Positions 186 to 28,033 of a stretch of 32,109 nucleotides of DNA are shown piece after piece. The notes below the pieces were generated by a model. The model made no database searches and was not told where the DNA came from. It saw only the letters and a program-made list of their open reading frames with translations. Origin of the DNA: Methanobrevibacter sp. (GTDB lineage Archaea; Methanobacteriota; Methanobacteria; Methanobacteriales; Methanobacteriaceae); assembly GCA_009777005.1 (NCBI GenBank), contig WRMT01000001.1, forward strand, positions 1 through 32,109, in the 5' to 3' direction. Numbering within the stretch: the first letter of the stretch is position 1; every line of letters begins with the position of its first letter. The position numbers and the translations under genes are program-made.

Positions 186-1763
186 TCATCGGATTGTTGT
201 TATTTGTGTTTGTAGTTGTTTTCCTGCAAATGCTATGGCAATAGCTATTATTTTTTTATCAAAGTATTTTTCATAGTACTTTTTATTCTTTATCTGTTCT
301 TCTGCACTTTTTAACATTTTTTCAAAGCTTATAATGGGTTGGTCTGTGTCTTTTTTGGTTTTTGAAAATTTAAATTCAGCTACTACTATAAAATCTTCTT
401 CTTTTAAAACCATGTCTATATATCCAGTATTAGTAGGAGTTTCTCCTTCTATTTCAAAACCTAAAGCATATAACCAAGCTAAAAAGATTGATAGATAATA
501 AAATTCTCGTTCAATATGAATTCTAGCAGGAATTCTTGCAAGAAAAGCTTTCATTTCTTTTTGAAAGCTATCATTATCAAGTTTTTCAATTTGTGAAATG
601 ATTTTATCTTTTCTTTCACTTATCTTATTTTCAGATAAATTTAAATCAATCAAATGATCTAGTAGAGAGCTTTCCACTTCAAAATTAGGAAATTCAAGTT
701 TATAATGGATGACATCATTGATAATTATCTTTTCAGTGATGGTTAAATATCCTGTTTGGAAAAATAAAGTTATAGGATCTAAATTATTATAATCAAAAGT
801 ATTAAACCTTGATTGTTTGATGATAATAGGTTTTAATACTGCTGAGTAGTCATTAGATTTTTTTAAAACATTTATAAGAAATTCTGGTGTTCCAGTATCA
901 AACCAATAGTCAGAAAATTCATAGCTATTAAATAATTTTAAGGTTGAAAAGGGATTATAAACCTTGTTTTCACCATCCCAACTATAACCATCATACCAAA
1001 AATTAATTTTTTCAAAAACTTGGTTTTCAGATAATGATAAATCATCTTTAAGAAGGTTTATATAATCTTTAAACTGATTTTTTAGCTCTTGATGAGTATA
1101 TCCACAAATACAAGCAAAATTCTTATTCAAAGTAATATCATTTAAATTATTTAAACCTGAAAAAATAGAAGTTTTAGAGAATTTACTTACACCTGTTAAA
1201 AATATGAATCTTAAATATTTATCATTAGATTTTAAAACTTGATAAAACCCACTTAAAACATCACGATTATGTTTAGCTACTTCAATGTTTTTGATAGCAT
1301 CTATTATAGGGAAATCATACTCATCAATGAGTACTACAACTTTTTTACCTGTTTTTTTATAAACTTCTATTATTAAGTCTGTGAATTTTTCAGATAAGTT
1401 TTTACTATAAAGTTTCACTGAAAATTCTCTTGTTAATCTATTAATTATATCATTTAAAATTATTTCTAATTTTTCAGGTGTTTTGTAGCTTCCTTTTCCA
1501 AGATCTATTTTCACTACAGGAAATTTTTCATTCCAATCCCATTTATCATAAATATAAAGATTTTTAAAAAGTTCTTTATTTCCTTTAAATAGCTCTTCTA
1601 AAGTACTAAGGAGTAATGACTTTCCAAATCTTCTGGGTCTTGATAAAAAATAAGTTTTACCCTTGTTAACCATTTCATAAATAGCTAATGTCTTGTCTAC
1701 ATATATATAATCCTCTTGGATAATTTCAGAGAAAGTCGACATCCCCAAAGGTAATTTTTTCAT
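186..1763 (-). CDS. AAA-ATPase-like / PD-(D/E)XK nuclease family protein (Pfam AAA-ATPase_like + PDDEXK_9/DUF1703-type architecture), paralog A
   Basis: The ORF track gives 186..1778. Motifs seen: P-loop-like SRPRRFGKSL, Walker-B-like VVVLIDEYD, and a C-terminal D...E-x-K nuclease motif (GYIDMVL...VAEFKFSK). I prefer the ATG at 1763 (MKKLPLG...) because a GGTGAGG Shine-Dalgarno lies 6 nt upstream and the paralog at 19734 starts MQKLPIG. Confidence 0.8.
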   Translation of the reverse strand: MKKLPLGMSTFSEIIQEDYIYVDKTLAIYEMVNKGKTYFLSRPRRFGKSLLLSTLEELFKGNKELFKNLYIYDKWDWNEKFPVVKIDLGKGSYKTPEKLEIILNDIINRLTREFSVKLYSKNLSEKFTDLIIEVYKKTGKKVVVLIDEYDFPIIDAIKNIEVAKHNRDVLSGFYQVLKSNDKYLRFIFLTGVSKFSKTSIFSGLNNLNDITLNKNFACICGYTHQELKNQFKDYINLLKDDLSLSENQVFEKINFWYDGYSWDGENKVYNPFSTLKLFNSYEFSDYWFDTGTPEFLINVLKKSNDYSAVLKPIIIKQSRFNTFDYNNLDPITLFFQTGYLTITEKIIINDVIHYKLEFPNFEVESSLLDHLIDLNLSENKISERKDKIISQIEKLDNDSFQKEMKAFLARIPARIHIEREFYYLSIFLAWLYALGFEIEGETPTNTGYIDMVLKEEDFIVVAEFKFSKTKKDTDQPIISFEKMLKSAEEQIKNKKYYEKYFDKKIIAIAIAFAGKQLQTQITTIR

Positions 1764-1814
1764 GAAAATCCTCACCATATTCTATTTATTTTTACAATCA
1801 TGTATATTTTTATT

Positions 1815-2300: not shown

Positions 2301-2335
<35 letters not shown>

Positions 2336-2371: not shown

Positions 2372-3829
2372 TTAGTCAATCAAAGATTCTAATAAACCTT
2401 TATTACTTACATTTGTATTGTTAGCTCCATTCATTTTTGAATTTGTAAGACCAGTTAACTTTTGAACAAATATATCTGACTTTTTAAGATTTTCCATTGT
2501 AGCTTTGGTTACTTTTTCGTGATAATGTCTAGCATGTGTATTACGATAAGTAAAGTAGACGTAAGCGAAATAAACAATTCCAGCAAGAGCAAAAATCCAA
2601 GAATAATCAGAATCAGAAAATATTAATGCTATAATGATTCCAATTAGTTCTACTATAGCTGAAACACCTAATAACTTAGGCATGTGGAGAGGTACACTTC
2701 CCATTATTTCTTTTGTTCTGGCATTTACTGCAACATAATGTAAAAGTTTCTTTTGATTATTTTGAACCTCTTGGTAGCTATATAACCACACAGGTAAATA
2801 AGCAGCAATCCATTTTTGCCCTTTAATATCTAATTGTTCATTTGACCATCTAACACCTCTATCATATTGTTTTAAAGTTTTGTTAGCTTGAAACCTTGCA
2901 ATGTCTTTAGCCTGATTAGTAGCTATGCCTTTTAATTGTTCAATATTTATATCACGTTTTTCTGATGTATATCCTTTCAAATAGTTAGCATTCCAATTTA
3001 CACTGTTTTCAGTGTCAAATGGCATGATAGCATTTATTATATTGTTTGTTTTTTCAGATGGTATATTGCTTAATTTATCAGCACTTGATTCAATTGTTAA
3101 GTCATCTATAAGTATATCAAATTCACGTTTAACATCATATAAATCTGCATCATAATATGTTTTCTCATCATCCCCACTTTTACGAGTATATCTTCTAACT
3201 TGATGTTCTCCTTGCCCAGATAATTTTGAATGAGCATTGATATCAACAACCATATAAGGTAAGTAAACTCCCATAACATTTTGTGTCGTGAATTCTTCTT
3301 TAAATACTGGATGTGCAAAAAATTTTCTCTTATCTACAAATTTTTCAATTTCTGCTTTAGCTATATCTTTTTTCAATTTAAAAGGTAATACCATATCAGG
3401 TATACTTCCATTTGGAATTTGTTGATTAACTGATAAGGTATTTCTACACCAATGGCATCTTGCCTGAGTAGCTTCACTTGTGTCAATTATTACCTCAGCT
3501 CCACAGCTACTACATTTAAAAGTCAATACATCATCTACATCTGCAATAATATCTTGAGCTCCTGAACCTAATACTTCCCCTTCTAAGTTACGTAAATCCT
3601 CATCGGTATCAGGTATTATTTTTTTTGACTCAAATTCATGTCTGCAAAAGTTACATCTTAATTTTCCATTATCTTGATTAAGTGAAATATCAGTTGAACC
3701 ACATTTAGGACATTTATTTTGTCCATCTTTAGCATCACGATCAGTTTGAATGATTTTAGGTTCATCAGTAGAAGTATTTACTTCACTATTATTTTCATTT
3801 TCTAAATTCGTTAAATCTTCTTCTTGCAT
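2372..3829 (-). CDS. Double zinc-ribbon membrane protein (YdjG-like TFIIB-type Zn-ribbon N-terminus, two C-terminal TM helices)
   Basis: Two CxxC...CxxC ribbons are present (CPKCGS..CNFCRH and CSSCGA..CHWCRN). Two C-terminal hydrophobic helices are present (LLGVSAIVELIGIIIALIF and WIFALAGIVYFAYVYFTY). The ATG lies 3 nt after the stop of the upstream SPFH gene, and a GAGGGA Shine-Dalgarno sits inside that gene's last codons. Confidence 0.75.
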   Translation of the reverse strand: MQEEDLTNLENENNSEVNTSTDEPKIIQTDRDAKDGQNKCPKCGSTDISLNQDNGKLRCNFCRHEFESKKIIPDTDEDLRNLEGEVLGSGAQDIIADVDDVLTFKCSSCGAEVIIDTSEATQARCHWCRNTLSVNQQIPNGSIPDMVLPFKLKKDIAKAEIEKFVDKRKFFAHPVFKEEFTTQNVMGVYLPYMVVDINAHSKLSGQGEHQVRRYTRKSGDDEKTYYDADLYDVKREFDILIDDLTIESSADKLSNIPSEKTNNIINAIMPFDTENSVNWNANYLKGYTSEKRDINIEQLKGIATNQAKDIARFQANKTLKQYDRGVRWSNEQLDIKGQKWIAAYLPVWLYSYQEVQNNQKKLLHYVAVNARTKEIMGSVPLHMPKLLGVSAIVELIGIIIALIFSDSDYSWIFALAGIVYFAYVYFTYRNTHARHYHEKVTKATMENLKKSDIFVQKLTGLTNSKMNGANNTNVSNKGLLESLID

Positions 3830-3832
3830 AGG

Positions 3833-5191
3833 CTATCCCTCTAAAATCTTGAATTTTTCTTTATCAAATTCTTCTTGTGATATAACTCCAGCATCAAGTA
3901 ATTTTTTAAGTTTTAATAATCTATCATATGGATCTTCTTCTTTTTTAGCTTCTGTTGGTTCGGGTGCTTGTGATTCAGTTGTTTGTTGATTTACTTGCTC
4001 ATTATCTTGTTGATTTGCTTGTTGATTTGCTTGTTGATTTGCTTGTTGATTTGCTTGTTGATTTGCTTGTTGATTTGCTTGTTGATTTGCTTGTTGATTT
4101 GCTTGTTGATTTGTTTGTTGATTAGCTTGTTGTTGAATAAATTGTGATTGAGGTGTTTGGTCATTTTGTTGTGTGGCACCCATCATAGAACCAGAGGCAT
4201 TCATTCCCATTCCCATAAATGCCATATTTCCTCCACCACCATTTTCTCCTGCTGATTGCATACCTCGTGCTACTGATTGTTGCATGAATGAGTTTCCACG
4301 TGCTCCAGATAAAGCATCTGCTTTTTTAACATCACTTAACAAAGACTTTGTATCTTCATCATATTCAATGGATTGTATAGCTACTTTTACTATTTCAAGA
4401 CCTCTATCTGCTTTCCATTGGTATCCATCTTCTACAGCTTGTGACATTGATGATGCAAAACCAATTTGGTCTCCTTGAATTTTAGCTATACGATTTCCTT
4501 TATTTGGGTCATTAGTATAATTAGAAAATGCTGCTGCTAAGCTACTTACAACTTCATTAAATAGCTGTGAACCTAAATCATTATCCATATCTGCAAGATC
4601 TAATAATGGTGCATTTGATTGTAAATACATAGCTGGTACAAAGTTCTTTACAAATAATAGTGGATCAATTATTTTTAAAGTATATGTCCCTCTTGTAATT
4701 GCTCCAACTTGAGCACCTAAATATGCATCATCCCAGTAGATTTCTGATTGTGTTCCAAAACGGTTATTTGGTATCTCTTTTAAATTGACATAGAATGCAA
4801 GTTGTTGTACACCTGGTTGCCCACCAAACTTAAAACGCTCCCATGATTGTTCTAATATAGAGGATAAAATCCCATCTCCTGAAAACAATGATTTGGCATT
4901 AGGATCGTTAGAAGAGTATATAAACCCACCAGGTTCAGCAACAAGCCCTGTTATTGCTCCATCTTCCAATGTAATCAGTGCAGTGCCTTCTGGAACTATT
5001 ATTTTACTTCCGTTAGTAATAATATTTTTGGACCCTTCTGTATTTGAGCCACGACCAGCATTAGCTCCTTGTGGAACTGCTTCAAATAGTACTGATGTTA
5101 CAGTAACATCTTGTCTTGGTAAAAAAAAATCCTTCCACTGGTCAGCAAATGTTCCACTAATTGCTCCAGTAAATGCTTTAATAAATCCCAT
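3833..5191 (-). CDS. SPFH/Band-7-like protein of the COG4260 type ('virion core protein-like', YdjI-related) with G/M-rich linker, (QQAN)n tract and C-terminal SHOCT domain
   Basis: The N-terminus MGFIKAFTGAISGTFADQWKDFF...NIITNGSKIIVPEG matches my memory of this family. The C-terminus DPYDRLLKLKKLLDAGVISQEEFDKEKFKIL is SHOCT-like. An AGGAGA Shine-Dalgarno lies 9 nt upstream of the ATG. Confidence 0.75.
   Translation of the reverse strand: MGFIKAFTGAISGTFADQWKDFFLPRQDVTVTSVLFEAVPQGANAGRGSNTEGSKNIITNGSKIIVPEGTALITLEDGAITGLVAEPGGFIYSSNDPNAKSLFSGDGILSSILEQSWERFKFGGQPGVQQLAFYVNLKEIPNNRFGTQSEIYWDDAYLGAQVGAITRGTYTLKIIDPLLFVKNFVPAMYLQSNAPLLDLADMDNDLGSQLFNEVVSSLAAAFSNYTNDPNKGNRIAKIQGDQIGFASSMSQAVEDGYQWKADRGLEIVKVAIQSIEYDEDTKSLLSDVKKADALSGARGNSFMQQSVARGMQSAGENGGGGNMAFMGMGMNASGSMMGATQQNDQTPQSQFIQQQANQQTNQQANQQANQQANQQANQQANQQANQQANQQANQQDNEQVNQQTTESQAPEPTEAKKEEDPYDRLLKLKKLLDAGVISQEEFDKEKFKILEG
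4001..4132 (-). repeat. In-frame 12-bp tandem repeat: 11 units, of which 8 are identical (4013..4108), encoding (QQAN)n
   Basis: Direct parsing gives attatcttgttg, then 8 x atttgcttgttg, then atttgtttgttg, then attagcttgttg. Confidence 0.95.
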
Positions 5192-5422
5192 GAAAAATCT
5201 CTCCTAAATTTTTTATATAGATTTAATTTTGTGTCTACAAAACTATTTTTTTATTAAATAACCTTTATAAGCAGAATTAGTTAATAGGTTAAAATCTTCA
5301 TTTTTTATGTTATATAAAATAGTGAGAATTTCAAAAAACATAATTAAGTATTACATATTTATCTATTTGATTAATGAAATTTCTATTTTATATAAACAAT
5401 TTGGAAAAAATATTTATTAAAA

Positions 5423-5540
5423 ATTTTAAAAATATACTTTATAAAATAACTTTTAAAAATGCATTAATAACTTTTAAAAATATATTTTATATAAAAACTT
5501 TTAAAAATGCATTAATAACTTTTAAAAATATATTTTATAA
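5423..5540. repeat. 48-bp-period tandem repeat, about 2.5 copies, upstream of the SPFH operon
   Basis: The unit acttttaaaaatgcattaataacttttaaaaatatattttata occurs at 5449 and 5497, with a partial copy before the first. ORF 5374..5568 is an artefact of this repeat. Confidence 0.85.
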
Positions 5541-5960
5541 AAAATGTATAGAAAATTTAAAAAAATGATTTTTGAAATTATCTAATAATTATGTATATAT
5601 TGATACATGATTTAAATATTTTTTATATATTTTAATTTTAAATTGAAGTCATTGTACAATTTTATTTTTGATGAACAAAATTAAAAAAATATTAAATAAA
5701 AAAATATAAATTAATAATTGAACAAAATTGGCTATATTCAATTTTTTTTAAATTTTAAATTTTTATTTATAAAAAGCTTTAGCAAAAATAATTATCCAAT
5801 AGCTAGTGCTGATAAAAATTTACCTCTTATTAAATTTTTCATCATACACACATCTTATAGAGATATATCCTAATCATTTTAATCTTATATGATGTTATCC
5901 TTCAAAATCAACTATTAGGTGTAAGTTTCATAATCTTATTTTAAGAAAGTATTATTCATT

Positions 5961-15564: not shown

Positions 15565-17010
15565 TCAATTATTTTGATTTGCAGTAAATTCATTAATTTT
15601 TAATTTCTCATTACAACTGTGACATTTAATAATATTTCCTATAAATTTTTCATGAATATCAAAAGTTTTAGCACAATAGCTACACCTAACTTTAAGGTTA
15701 TTATTAGTATATCGAAGCATGCCATCTTTAAACATGATTTTAGAACCGTTAGCCTTAAATTTAAGGTTACTATTTGTATCTTGGAGAGGAGTTACAATAG
15801 CTATTCCTTGTTTTAAGTTTTTAATGGAGTAAATTAATATTTCTCCAGAATCCGTTCCTACTGTGATTTGATGATTGTTATTCGAAAAAACACAGGATCT
15901 TATGTAATCGTCTATATTTATCGATATTATGGGTTCTTGTTTTTCTTCATTTTTTTCCCAGTCCCAAACACAAACAGTACCATCCTCTGAACCCGAAACA
16001 ATATATTTTCCATCAGGAGAAAAACACACACTCCACACAATGTCTGTATGTCTTAATCTAGTTTTTTCCTCTTTTTTTTCCCAGTCCCAAACACGAACAG
16101 TACCATCCTCTGATCCCGAAACAATATATTTTCCATCAGGAGAAAAACACACACTCCACACATTGCGTGTGTGTCCTTTTAATATTGTTTTTTCCTCTTT
16201 TTTTTCCCAGTCCCAAACACGAACAGTACCATCCCTTGATCCAGAAACAATATATTTTCCATCAGGAGAAAAACACACACTCTCCACAAAGCCAGTGAGT
16301 CCTTTTAATATTGTTTTTTCCTCTTTTTTTTCCCAGTCCCAAACACGAACAGTACCATCCCCTGATCCCAAAATATATTTTCCATCAGGAGAAAAACACA
16401 CACTCTCCACAAAGCCAGTGAGTCCTTTTAATATTGTTTTTTCCTCTTTTTTTTCCCAATCCCAAACACGAACAGTACCATCCCCTGATCCCGAAACAAT
16501 ATATTTTCCATCAGGAGAAAAACACACACTCACCACATCGTCTGTGTGTCCTTTTAATATTGTTTTTTCCTCTTTTTTTTCCCAGTCCCAAACACGAACA
16601 GTCCCATCCCTTGATCCCGAAACAATATATTTTCCATCAGGAGAAAAACACACACTAAACACATAGCTTGTGTGTCCTTTTAATATTGTTTTTTCCTCAT
16701 TTTTTTCCCAGCTCCAAACACGAACAGTCCCATCCCATGATCCCGAAACAATATATTTTCCATCAGGAGAAAAACACGCAATACTCACGGTGGTTGGGTG
16801 AGCAAGTATTGCTTTGAGTGAACCTTCGGGTGTGTGCATATAATGATGTGGTTTTAGCCATGGGAAATTGGTTTGTTTTTCTATTTCATTTAATAATTCT
16901 TTAATCTGAGGATTTATTTGTGTTTTTAATCTTCCCCATAGTTGAGAAGGTAATTCTTTAATATTGTCTTGTAGAATATATGAAGACATAGATAAAGTTT
17001 TTTTAATCAA
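15565..17010 (-). CDS. WD40 beta-propeller protein (7 near-identical blades plus 1 degenerate) with C-terminal CxxC...CxxC zinc ribbon
   Basis: Repeats have the form CFSPDGKYIVSGSxDGTVRVWDWEKKEEKTILKGHTxxVxSV. The C-terminus is CSYCAKTF...CHSCNEKL. The start is ambiguous: a TTG at 17010 overlaps the upstream stop, or the ATG at 16989. Confidence 0.85.
   Translation of the reverse strand: MIKKTLSMSSYILQDNIKELPSQLWGRLKTQINPQIKELLNEIEKQTNFPWLKPHHYMHTPEGSLKAILAHPTTVSIACFSPDGKYIVSGSWDGTVRVWSWEKNEEKTILKGHTSYVFSVCFSPDGKYIVSGSRDGTVRVWDWEKKEEKTILKGHTDDVVSVCFSPDGKYIVSGSGDGTVRVWDWEKKEEKTILKGLTGFVESVCFSPDGKYILGSGDGTVRVWDWEKKEEKTILKGLTGFVESVCFSPDGKYIVSGSRDGTVRVWDWEKKEEKTILKGHTRNVWSVCFSPDGKYIVSGSEDGTVRVWDWEKKEEKTRLRHTDIVWSVCFSPDGKYIVSGSEDGTVCVWDWEKNEEKQEPIISINIDDYIRSCVFSNNNHQITVGTDSGEILIYSIKNLKQGIAIVTPLQDTNSNLKFKANGSKIMFKDGMLRYTNNNLKVRCSYCAKTFDIHEKFIGNIIKCHSCNEKLKINEFTANQNN
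15935..16800 (-). repeat. Seven DNA-level tandem copies of a 126-bp unit (two copies are 123 bp) encoding the WD40 blades
   Basis: The landmark cccagtccc (cccaatccc in one copy) recurs at 15957, 16080, 16206, 16332, 16455, 16581 and 16707. Confidence 0.95.
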
Positions 17011-26228: not shown

Positions 26229-27083
26229 TTAAAATAGAATATTATCAATATTATCTTTTAGCATATTATAATTTAAAACATAATCAATTGATCTCATAGC
26301 AAATTTTAGAGTAGTGAACATTTTTTTCCATCCCTGTCCATCAGTTATCCAAATAAATGTCATGTCTAAATCACTAATTTTTTTTTGTAAATCAATATAT
26401 GCGTTTGCAGTTTCAATCGGTTTACTTCCTCCTGCAGAATAAAAATTACATTCAAAAAGAAATAGAGGAATATCATCTTTATATATAACAAAATCGGCTC
26501 TTTTATTTCTTTTAGTTTTTATACTGCTATCTTCTGAGGTCAAAGAGTATTGAGGATTATTTTCAATGCTTTTTTCTAATAAATCACCTACAATTCCTTC
26601 AAATACATGCCCACTTCTATTTTTTCGAGCATTAGTGTCTAAACCAACTTCTGTTCCAGTTAAATATGAATAAAGATCATCAATTTCATTAAAAAGATTA
26701 AGTAATCCAGTTTTTCTGGAAAAAGTTAAAACTTCATCTAACTTAAAGTTATTCATTGAAAAATCTATCTTTTTAAATGTTTGGGTTGTTAAATCAATCA
26801 CATCAACTTTTTTATCCCTAATAGCTAAAACTAATGGTAAAATAGGAACACATTCAGGATATTTTTTTAAAATTTCTATAAATTTATCTTCAACTTTATC
26901 TGAACCAATTTTATTTAAACTATTTAAAATATTAATCTCAACAACTTTATTTTCGAGATTACCAAAAACTTTTTCCCAATCTACAAAAAACTCATATGTG
27001 CGGTTTGTAGTAAGTAATGAATCATCATAATCCAAAGTGTACTCCTCAAAAGATTTATATCCCAATTTTTCATAATAAACCAT
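26229..27083 (-). CDS. Type II restriction endonuclease, DpnII/MboI family (GATC)
   Basis: NILNSLNKIGSDKVEDKFIEILKKYPECVPILPLVLAIRDKK resembles my memory of the DpnII N-terminus (NSLIG..EDF..YPE..VPLLIAKR). GLDTNARKNRSGHVFE is also present. ATG at 27083 with a TGAGGT Shine-Dalgarno is preferred; the track's TTG at 27098 would overlap the methylase stop. Confidence 0.8.
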   Translation of the reverse strand: MVYYEKLGYKSFEEYTLDYDDSLLTTNRTYEFFVDWEKVFGNLENKVVEINILNSLNKIGSDKVEDKFIEILKKYPECVPILPLVLAIRDKKVDVIDLTTQTFKKIDFSMNNFKLDEVLTFSRKTGLLNLFNEIDDLYSYLTGTEVGLDTNARKNRSGHVFEGIVGDLLEKSIENNPQYSLTSEDSSIKTKRNKRADFVIYKDDIPLFLFECNFYSAGGSKPIETANAYIDLQKKISDLDMTFIWITDGQGWKKMFTTLKFAMRSIDYVLNYNMLKDNIDNILF

Positions 27084-27094
27084 TTTTATTAACC

Positions 27095-28033
27095 TCAATA
27101 ATTTTTAACTAGAATTTCATTAATTGCTCCTCTTTTTTTAGCATCTCGATTAATAAATCTTTTTGCTTGAACACGTTTTATATCATATTTGCCATATAAA
27201 TCGTCGAAGAAATTGTCATTTTCATCCTCATTTTTAGGATCAGAATTGCTTAAAATAGCTAATGCTCCTTTTTTACTTATTCTATAAAAATAATGAGCTA
27301 ATTCTACTTGATCCTCGTCATTAAATTCATTTTCACTATAACTAGTGAAATTTGAAGTTTTATTAAGTGGTCTGTATGGAGGATCTAGATAAACTAAAGA
27401 TTCTTCATCAATTAATTTTTCTGATTCTATAAAACTTTTATTAAATATATTAGATATTTTTAAAGCTTTTGAAACATTTTTAACATTAGTTTCATCACAA
27501 ATTGTAGGATTTTTATAATCCCCCATAGGAACATTAAATTCTCCTTTTTTATTTAGCCTAAAAAGTCCATTGAAACAAGTTTTATTAAGAAAAATAGTTT
27601 GAGAAGCTCTAATAATATGTTTATTAGTGTAATTATTAAAAGAAAAACTTTTTAAGTTATGATTAAATTCTTTTCTAATAGACAAATAATATTCTTTTCT
27701 TTCACTATGATCTTTAGGCAAAAAATGATTTTGAAGGTCAGTTAAATGATTAATCAATTCTTGATGATCATTTTTAATTACATTATATGTTAAAATCAGT
27801 TCTTTATTGATATCATAAAGAAAAGCCTTTTTGATATTATAATTACTAGCTAAATGAAAGAAAACAGCACCCCCACCAACAAAAGGCTCGAAATAGGATT
27901 TAATTTTTTTATTTTTCGTGAAAATATCAGGCAATATTGATTCTATTTCATTAATAAGCTGTGTTTTTCCACCTGCCCACTTTAAAAATGGTTTAGCTTT
28001 GATTTTTTCATTATTAAAAAGATCCATTTGCAT
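27095..28033 (-). CDS. Dam-family (MethyltransfD12, DpnM-like) N6-adenine DNA methyltransferase
   Basis: Motifs seen: PFLKWAGGKTQL, motif I EPFVGGGAVFF, motif IV VYLDPPY. The gene lies directly upstream of the endonuclease and in the same direction. Confidence 0.9.
   Translation of the reverse strand: MQMDLFNNEKIKAKPFLKWAGGKTQLINEIESILPDIFTKNKKIKSYFEPFVGGGAVFFHLASNYNIKKAFLYDINKELILTYNVIKNDHQELINHLTDLQNHFLPKDHSERKEYYLSIRKEFNHNLKSFSFNNYTNKHIIRASQTIFLNKTCFNGLFRLNKKGEFNVPMGDYKNPTICDETNVKNVSKALKISNIFNKSFIESEKLIDEESLVYLDPPYRPLNKTSNFTSYSENEFNDEDQVELAHYFYRISKKGALAILSNSDPKNEDENDNFFDDLYGKYDIKRVQAKRFINRDAKKRGAINEILVKNY

Follow-up and report, generated by a model that had tools for sequence, protein, structure and literature searches.

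The reverse strand of the 32,109-bp Methanobrevibacter contig WRMT01000001.1 (assembly GCA_009777005.1), which in its entirety is the window analyzed here, carries at positions 2372–5191 two adjacent genes, one for a soluble SPFH protein of the YdjI/SamI family (gene 1) and one for a zinc-ribbon membrane protein of the YdjG/SamG family (gene 2). This pair is an ordinary member of a widespread, highly conserved two-gene module and a divergent variant of the SamI/SamG system of Bacillus subtilis that has neither PspA nor the TPM-domain protein. We propose, with a probability of roughly 0.6, that the two genes are a self-contained operon for a membrane-associated SPFH complex of the SamI/SamG type, likely serving membrane surveillance or organization without an adjacent PspA.

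Architecture of the gene pair

The features of the pair are listed below in the direction of transcription, with the evidence for each in brackets.

5199–5205, reverse strand: AGGAGAG Shine–Dalgarno-like motif, 7 nt 5′ of the gene 1 ATG (sequence)
3833–5191, reverse strand: gene 1, 452 amino acids (aa), a soluble member of the YdjI/SamI family of SPFH proteins (Pfam Band_7_1) that ends in a SHOCT module (open reading frame (ORF), Pfam, HHalign, AlphaFold2)
4244–5191, reverse strand: amphipathic N-terminal helix (aa 2–18), then SPFH core with helical extension (aa ~20–316) (AlphaFold2, Foldseek)
4172–4255, reverse strand: G/M-rich low-complexity segment, aa ~313–340 (predicted local distance difference test score (pLDDT) <50; aligns with YdjI in BLASTP and HHalign)
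3979–4132, reverse strand: (QQAN)n tract, a 12-nt tandem repeat of 12.8 copies (TRF)
3839–3931, reverse strand: SHOCT two-helix module, aa 421–451 (Pfam PF09851)
3830–3841, reverse strand: coupling junction, with GAGGGA (3841–3836), TAG (3835–3833) and cct (3832–3830) followed by ATG at 3829 (sequence)
2372–3829, reverse strand: gene 2, a 485-aa YdjG/SamG-family protein with two zinc ribbons, an alpha/beta middle domain, a transmembrane (TM) hairpin and a tail (ORF, BLASTP, HHalign)
3632–3715, reverse strand: zinc ribbon 1, aa 39–66, with C40, C43, C59 and C62 (sub-threshold profile matches, invariant cysteines)
3437–3520, reverse strand: zinc ribbon 2, aa 104–131, with C106, C109, C125 and C128 (sub-threshold profile matches, invariant cysteines)
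2687–3400, reverse strand: middle alpha/beta domain with very long beta-strands, aa ~144–381 (~240 aa) (AlphaFold2; homologous to the YdjG middle domain)
2546–2683, reverse strand: TM hairpin, aa 383–428, with TM1 at 386–404, an acidic loop (SDSDYS) and an aromatic-rich TM2 at ~410–428 (hydropathy, AlphaFold2)
2375–2545, reverse strand: conserved cytoplasmic tail, aa 429–485, with motifs YRNxxARHxHE and TGLxN..GANN (invariant columns)
2305–2333, reverse strand: T29 run, 39 nt after the gene 2 stop codon, A29 on the forward strand (sequence, TRF)

A first-pass annotation, made from the sequence alone, had described a 452-aa protein with an SPFH body, a G/M-rich linker, a (QQAN)n tract and a SHOCT-like helix pair, and a 485-aa protein with two CxxC ribbons, a middle domain and two C-terminal TM helices. 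All of these elements were found where it had placed them, as were the Shine–Dalgarno sequence of gene 2 inside the last codons of gene 1 across a 3-nt junction (GAGGGA-TAG-cct-ATG) and the T29 run after the pair.

On profile scores, gene 1 is a divergent member of PF13421: its Band_7_1 match covers residues 55–187 only, at 27.3 bits against a gathering cut-off of 24 (E = 3.4e-6), whereas YdjI scores 147 bits. The SHOCT match (residues 423–446) reaches 28.2 bits against a cut-off of 27 (E = 1.5e-6). The AlphaFold2 model of gene 1 (pLDDT 73.6) consists of the SPFH core, the helical extension, a disordered G/M stretch, a long helix made of the Q-rich repeat and the SHOCT module, whose two helices (421–433 and 439–451) have pLDDT >90. 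When this model was searched against the PDB with Foldseek, it matched stomatin, HflK/C, erlin, prohibitin and flotillin (E from 2e-7 to 1e-5) as well as the major vault protein, all of them ring- or cage-forming SPFH proteins. No hydrophobic window of gene 1 reached the threshold for a TM segment in the hydropathy analysis, while residues 2–19 have a hydrophobic moment of 0.66. The N-terminus, MGFIKAFTGA..., is almost invariant among 100 homologs, which confirms the start codon, and the N-terminal helix, SPFH core and extension together are ~80–85% identical to bacterial homologs.

In the (QQAN)n tract the variable linker of gene 1 has undergone a lineage-specific expansion, and the protein is 452 aa long versus 400–417 aa in archaeal relatives; the exact 452-aa sequence was not found in the protein collection searched. 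The tract, which AlphaFold2 models as one long helix, appears to be length-variable and liable to break assemblies. An independent contig (P0139) encodes the identical N-terminal 320 aa and stops at the repeat, and another relative (P0121) is 623 aa long.

The eight ribbon cysteines of gene 2 show no variation across 99 close homologs and line up with the 8 cysteines of YdjG-type proteins, and the zinc-ribbon profile matches to both ribbons all fall below family thresholds. The middle region has no Pfam match; its AlphaFold2 model contains strands, at 186–246 and 326–369, with pLDDT up to 97. Foldseek found nothing significant for the gene 2 model in the PDB (best E = 0.037, TM-score <0.1), and a sequence search of the PDB gave no useful match. 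Ravi et al. described the YdjG middle domain as NTF2-like/YpeB-related (PMC11237479), a fold that the Foldseek search of the PDB, with no significant match, did not confirm for gene 2. Among viral models in BFVD there was one marginal structural match to gene 2, a giant-virus protein annotated as 'DnaJ-like subfamily C member 3' (Edafosvirus sp. A0A3G4ZSZ8; E = 4.7e-4, TM-scores 0.25/0.33, 263 aligned columns in Foldseek), which may be a YdjG-like protein.

The membrane segment of gene 2 begins with TM1 (386–404), which is strong by hydropathy, and AlphaFold2 places helices at 383–403 and 410–428. The charges flanking and separating these helices (+2 / −2 / +3) leave basic outer flanks on both sides, and because of these positive flanks both ends of the hairpin are predicted to be cytoplasmic. 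According to the model, gene 2 would be almost wholly cytoplasmic and held by a helical hairpin that exposes an outside loop of ~6 residues. Within the conserved tail, residues 442–461 are predicted to form a beta-strand with pLDDT >90.

Homology to YdjI and YdjG of Bacillus subtilis

We located a reference pspA-ydjGHI locus of the B. subtilis type through the ydjG primer sequence printed in PMC8581546 and compared its products with those of the pair. BLASTP aligned residues 39–386 of gene 2 with residues 6–315 of YdjG at 24% identity over ~350 aa (E = 3e-23), an alignment that takes in the two ribbons and all of the middle domain as far as the membrane anchor. The pairwise match of gene 1 to YdjI was weak (23% identity, E = 0.004). 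HHalign comparisons with profiles of SPFH and YdjG-like proteins from Bacillus, Enterococcus, Comamonas and Vibrio gave 99.9% for both proteins, over 290 columns from the N-terminus through the G/M-rich segment for gene 1 (E = 3.8e-34) and over 323 columns for gene 2 (E = 3.6e-36). By these sequence criteria, gene 1 and gene 2 are true homologs of YdjI/SamI and YdjG/SamG, and the YdjI/YdjG relationship put forward in the first-pass annotation is borne out by the profile searches.

In both systems the SPFH protein is soluble, belongs to Band_7_1 and contains a G/M-rich segment; its partner carries two CxxC ribbons near the N-terminus, continues with the same middle domain and is anchored in the membrane by its C-terminal part. 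The two genes lie within one operon in either case. They differ in several respects. Identity to the B. subtilis counterparts is only 23–24%, and the host here is an archaeon. The pair lacks pspA and ydjH (TPM), both of which are present in the B. subtilis pspA-ydjGHI (pspA-samGHI) operon; the SPFH gene comes first here and is coupled to its partner across 3 nt, whereas the Bacillus order is G-H-I. YdjG ends just after its TM segment, whereas gene 2 continues with a second TM helix and a conserved tail of ~55 aa. Gene 1 ends in SHOCT where YdjI carries Zn_ribbon_3 (residues 301–322), so that Pfam agrees with the earlier reading that SHOCT stands in place of the C-terminal zinc ribbon. This C-terminal module varies across the SPFH family, being SHOCT here, GYF_2 in Bacteroidales, a helix-turn-helix (HTH) domain in Comamonas and a zinc ribbon in Bacillus.

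The suggestion that YdjG-like and membrane-anchor functions had become fused in gene 2 did not survive these comparisons. YdjG has a C-terminal TM segment of its own and is thus already anchored, and gene 2 has no similarity to, and no counterpart of, the TPM-domain protein YdjH; we therefore rejected gene 2 as a YdjG+YdjH fusion.

More distant relatives, whose proteins are 20–26% identical to gene 2, also have the pair without PspA. An Enterococcus gallinarum replicon (pK205-4a-A) encodes a triad of SPFH, YdjG-like and TPM proteins and so, unlike the window, keeps the TPM gene; in a Comamonas replicon the SPFH protein is fused to the HTH domain and followed by the zinc-ribbon protein; and in a Vibrio replicon the SPFH gene lies directly 5′ of the YdjG-like gene with the same 3-nt gap as here. 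The stomatin–NfeD (STOPP), FloT/FloA–NfeD2 and HflK/C–FtsH systems share the SPFH fold and likely form large membrane-associated oligomers with an operon partner in the membrane (PMC2636767). Classical SPFH proteins carry their own N-terminal TM segment or hairpin, whereas gene 1 is soluble, and their partner is an NfeD-type protein or FtsH, whereas that of gene 1 is a zinc-ribbon protein of a different fold. No NfeD domain was found in gene 2 or among the listed most frequent families of 128 nearest neighbors of related loci.

Distribution of the dyad and absence of PspA

Relatives of each protein number in the thousands. The 120 best matches to either protein are 65–88% identical to it, and their named sources include Methanobrevibacter, Methanobacteriaceae, Bacteroidales, Prolixibacteraceae, 'Tenericutes' and a metagenome-assembled genome (MAG) labelled Peribacteria. 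In a one-genome-per-species collection at least 355 stretches encode a relative, and the best 80 of these are 61–76% identical and come almost all from gut-derived MAGs (uncultured Bacilli/'Tenericutes', Clostridia, Bacteroidales/Muribaculaceae, a Saccharimonas MAG and an Actinomycetes MAG), with one Clostridium isolate and one termite-gut Methanobrevibacter also among them. Clustered at 50% identity (E ≤ 1e-3), the YdjG-like family as a whole falls into 3,508 clusters in a continuum from 60% down to 28% identity; a close subfamily, chiefly of gut anaerobes, is 61–81% identical across phyla and domains. The dyad itself was seen in Bacillota, Bacteroidota, Pseudomonadota, a Saccharimonas MAG and a few Methanobrevibacter. 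Databases already carry the annotation 'SPFH domain protein / TFIIB-type zinc ribbon-containing protein', and our literature searches on COG4260, SPFH with SHOCT and SPFH with zinc ribbon found no paper that describes the dyad.

To characterize the neighborhoods we used 86 related loci with flanks of ~10 kb, of which 74 were non-redundant, and took Pfam families from 128 nearest neighbors. In 83 of the 86 loci the SPFH and YdjG-like genes were direct neighbors that kept this order and shared a strand, and no other genes were universal among the 74 non-redundant loci. The gap between them was 1–4 nt in 71 of the 83 adjacent pairs and exactly 3 nt in 48. In the window the spacer is likewise 3 nt, and a purine-rich Shine–Dalgarno-like motif lies within the last two sense codons of gene 1; this design recurs in 71 of the 83 loci, from several phyla, where the upstream SPFH genes end in ...L-L-G-x codons that place GGA or GGGGG 8–11 nt before the next ATG. 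This arrangement is far beyond chance. A read-through fusion of the two in-frame ORFs was rejected, since many loci have spacers of 1, 2 or 4 nt and in some the 3-nt spacer is a stop codon.

We searched the contig for PspA and TPM using Pfam on 20 called ORFs (≥90 aa plus two, both pair genes included) and six-frame phmmer with B. subtilis PspA and YdjH. Neither a PspA nor a TPM/YdjH gene was found in the 32,109 bp, in agreement with the first-pass annotation, which had noted no PspA. The survey of other genomes was made at the level of the locus, with one query sequence and Pfam on the nearest neighbors: phmmer detected PspA within ~10 kb in none of the 86 related loci (0/86), a TPM gene was present in only 3 of the 86, and the list of the most frequent Pfam families among the nearest neighbors did not include PspA. 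The distant dyads of Enterococcus, Comamonas and Vibrio likewise had no PspA beside the SPFH and YdjG-like genes. Because these distant members keep the dyad without PspA, we regard the SPFH–YdjG-like order as the conserved core and the linkage to PspA and TPM in Bacillus as a lineage-specific elaboration. As judged from gene content, the window therefore holds the common form of the dyad and not a reduced psp operon. The pair is thus conserved as neighbors without pspA, and its description as a compact psp operon has to be reversed, with B. subtilis as the elaborated case.

Two sets of loci depart from the bare dyad. Downstream of the pair, 10–18 of the 74 non-redundant loci (those checked were labelled Bacilli for the most part) carry a zinc-ribbon–Yip1 gene, genes for two unknown proteins and a zinc-ribbon–VWA gene, which may form an extended operon with it (examples are L025 4452–5423, L023 11534–12283, L033 15668–16297 and L021 15367–18255). 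A three-gene variant in termite-gut Bacteroidales (L001/L012 7338–7973, L058) has GYF_2 in place of SHOCT and a 211-aa DUF6935 gene between the two partners.

Origin and selection of the archaeal copies

The gene next to the pair encodes an 852-aa DUF5814 helicase whose named matches are from Methanobrevibacter and Methanobacteriaceae only (80–82% identity in MAGs, 73% in M. arboriphilus, 71% in M. cuticularis and 65% in M. olleyae). On account of these relatives we assign the host to the insect/termite-gut group of Methanobrevibacter-type archaea and regard the flanks of the pair as native. In a neighbor-joining tree of gene 2, rooted with YdjG and bootstrapped 30 times, the archaeal sequences formed one clade (29/30) nested within bacteria (30/30), which argues for transfer from bacteria to archaea. 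The nearest neighbors of this clade were termite-gut Bacteroidales, with weak support (14/30). Of the proposal that the pair was acquired from Firmicutes, the bacterial origin therefore stands, while a specifically Firmicutes donor is not supported.

GC content at third codon positions (GC3) is 0.14–0.15 in the pair versus 0.10–0.17 in native genes, and the higher overall GC of the pair reflects its amino-acid composition. No flanking synteny was found between this window and other archaeal loci. Synonymous divergence (dS) is 0.5–0.8 within the archaeal clade and ~1 to >3 (saturated) between phyla, and nonsynonymous divergence (dN) is 0.09–0.28 overall and 0.13–0.28 between phyla. The native helicase falls to ~65% identity within the genus; the pair is 64–79% identical to bacterial proteins. 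Together, these observations point to an old, codon-ameliorated transfer from bacteria to archaea followed by very strong purifying selection.

Some sequences carry conflicting labels. Near-identical gene 2 proteins occur under different class or phylum labels (Agathobacter versus Bacilli, L010 and L011; Christensenella versus Bacilli, L013 and L016), and a protein labelled 'Candidatus Peribacteria' (P0002) falls inside the archaeal clade; these cases reflect mis-binning or very recent transfer.

A proposed membrane-associated SPFH complex

To our knowledge, all structurally known SPFH proteins form rings or cages. We propose that gene 1 probably oligomerizes in this way on the cytoplasmic face of the membrane. 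By analogy with SamG, which together with SamH serves SamI in this manner, gene 2 would then be the membrane receptor or anchor of the gene 1 oligomer and possibly a regulated partner; in B. subtilis, YdjG and YdjH are needed for the soluble YdjI to localize to the membrane (PMC8581546). Translational coupling would supply the two partners jointly so that they can form the complex. The C-terminal module of gene 1, which is SHOCT, GYF or a zinc ribbon depending on the lineage, may act as an exchangeable adaptor on a flexible G/M/Q-rich linker; for SHOCT-like domains, a role in membrane-proximal anchoring or assembly has been proposed (PMC11237479; PMC3581485). The complex would monitor or organize the cytoplasmic membrane, for example under envelope stress, with no PspA encoded beside it. 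Its target is presumably generic, since nearly the same proteins are kept in bacteria and in an archaeon with ether lipids and a pseudomurein wall, and the physical state of the membrane or a universal component would be a likelier target than peptidoglycan synthesis or domain-specific transcription machinery. With only ~6 residues of gene 2 predicted outside the membrane, any signal would have to come from the cytoplasm or the membrane itself.

Several points weigh against this proposal. The interaction of the two proteins, their oligomeric state and a role in stress are extrapolated from a relative that is only ~23–24% identical. The direct interactor of YdjI in B. subtilis is YdjH, whose TPM domain is missing here, and in two-hybrid assays YdjG bound YdjH rather than clearly YdjI (PMC8581546). 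Direct contact between gene 1 and gene 2 is suggested by their conserved coupling and by nothing else, and the AlphaFold2 model of gene 2 is of moderate quality, with an overall pLDDT of 68.9 and three long low-confidence stretches.

Alternatively, the pair might belong to a dispersed Psp-type system and recruit a PspA, IM30 or ESCRT-III-type protein encoded elsewhere in the genome. YdjI is needed for the formation of PspA foci in B. subtilis (PMC8581546), Ravi et al. considered that PspA-less neighborhoods may recruit PspA from elsewhere (PMC11237479), and our view of this genome is one 32-kb contig. Nevertheless, we see no selective pressure for linkage to PspA, because PspA was never found within 10 kb of the 86 loci, which span many phyla, or in the distant dyads. 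Moreover, PspA's conserved partner among Firmicutes is YdjH, the TPM protein (PMC11237479), which is lacking here, and more than half of archaeal genomes have no Psp domain at all (PMC9239133). SamI restrains signaling by SamG and SamH, and PspA is dispensable for that phenotype (bioRxiv 10.64898/2026.02.06.704340). We consider a dispersed Psp system unlikely.

The structural matches of gene 1, all SPFH cages that enclose or regulate clients, raise a different possibility, namely that the client of the SPFH assembly is an unlinked membrane protein, for instance a protease or a transporter, which the assembly would cage or regulate (compare HflK/C–FtsH and stomatin–NfeD), and that gene 2 is an adaptor only. 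The extra membrane genes downstream of the pair in a subset of loci (zinc-ribbon–Yip1 and zinc-ribbon–VWA) would fit such a role. Yet no NfeD, FtsH or other client gene is conserved beside the pair, and gene 1 has no TM segment or hairpin of the kind that sets classical SPFH cages over their clients, which makes this arrangement quite improbable.

It is very unlikely that gene 2 is a membrane-tethered nucleic-acid-binding or regulatory factor whose activity or release is controlled by the SPFH protein. Its ribbons weakly match TFIIB, RpoP, S27e and L37ae, and SamGH has been proposed to signal to gene expression (bioRxiv 10.64898/2026.02.06.704340), but every one of these ribbon matches is sub-threshold, zinc ribbons are generic interaction modules, and neither a protease site nor another release mechanism is evident. 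The proteins are also 65–70% identical in bacteria and archaea, whose transcription machineries differ.

The idea that the pair is an anti-phage or abortive-infection module with an SPFH-controlled membrane-disrupting effector, which the first-pass annotation had raised together with enrichment in defence islands, is prompted by the DpnII restriction–modification system and the STAND NTPase and WD40 gene elsewhere in the window and by pore-former and porin matches of insignificant score to the long beta-strands of gene 2, but it has next to no probability: PHROGs and PADLOC returned for both proteins only local zinc-ribbon or low-complexity matches (in PADLOC, PDC-S64 and PD-T4-6, respectively), the nearest neighbors in the 74 loci are housekeeping genes (SerRS, EF-Tu, release factors, PlsX, DnaB) with no coherent defence systems, of 50,697 phage records only 8, and of 72,556 plasmids only 6, contain a match, none of these matches is close, and 2.9 million viral contigs contain none at all, and defence genes typically evolve in the opposite way to the extreme conservation of these sequences. 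A single 'phage' record comes closer: MT835641, at 44% identity, an UNVERIFIED fecal scaffold of 73% GC whose genes were not recovered by ORF calling.

Flanking sequences and other genes of the contig

The T29 run is a plausible oligo-T terminator of the archaeal type, and a terminator scan found none of the hairpin type. Just 3′ of gene 2, positions 2078–2373 form a direct duplication of 156 nt (1.9 copies, 81% match), each copy of which holds a homopolymer of 28–29 nt (T on the coding strand), so that the 'T29 terminator' is present twice. The spacer between the helicase and gene 1 (5192–5960) is unusually long at ~770 nt, has 19% GC and contains a 48-nt tandem repeat at 5416–5544 (2.7 copies, 92% match); it may be regulatory or an insertion remnant. 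TATA-like A/T runs occur upstream of gene 1, where a sigma-70 scan, a model not applicable to archaea, performed at chance level.

Elsewhere in the contig, a 748-aa DUF4062 and STAND/NACHT-like NTPase (17007–19253, reverse strand) overlaps by 4 nt a 481-aa protein with a seven-bladed WD40 domain (15565–17010). This pair resembles a split STAND protein of the kind found in conflict systems, with PADLOC matches that are weak or local, and its GC3 of 0.22–0.23, versus 0.10–0.17 in the other window genes, suggests more recent acquisition. Two paralogous genes that combine AAA-ATPase_like and PD-(D/E)XK (PDDEXK_9) domains lie at 186–1778 (reverse strand) and 19734–21314 (forward strand), one of them directly 3′ of the SPFH/zinc-ribbon pair. 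At 26229–28033 (reverse strand), a DpnII-type restriction endonuclease and a D12-class (Dam-like) N6-adenine methyltransferase, which overlap by 4 nt, make up a complete type II restriction–modification system.

Implications for the YdjI/SamI branch of SPFH proteins

SPFH proteins are universal membrane organizers whose mechanisms are only now being resolved, and the YdjI/SamI branch has been studied so far in B. subtilis only, always alongside PspA. A bolder form of our proposal, which we hold only tentatively and regard as doubtful, is that the dyad is an autonomous, PspA-independent membrane-surveillance machine, an ancient core that is indifferent to lipid chemistry, has an anchor fold with no solved relative and gave rise to SamGHI/PspA as a derived state. 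The dyad has kept 65–80% identity across bacterial phyla and ether-lipid archaea. If it is indeed the conserved core, it would offer a minimal system for the YdjI/SamI branch, free of PspA and TPM, in a module that hundreds of species of gut anaerobes carry and that is subject to very strong purifying selection. The pair overturns no current framework and is of note mainly for its conservation across domains and for an anchor protein whose fold has no solved match. The archaeal copies, as far as their sequences tell, suggest that the module works after transfer into a cell with ether lipids and a pseudomurein wall, which would constrain what it senses.

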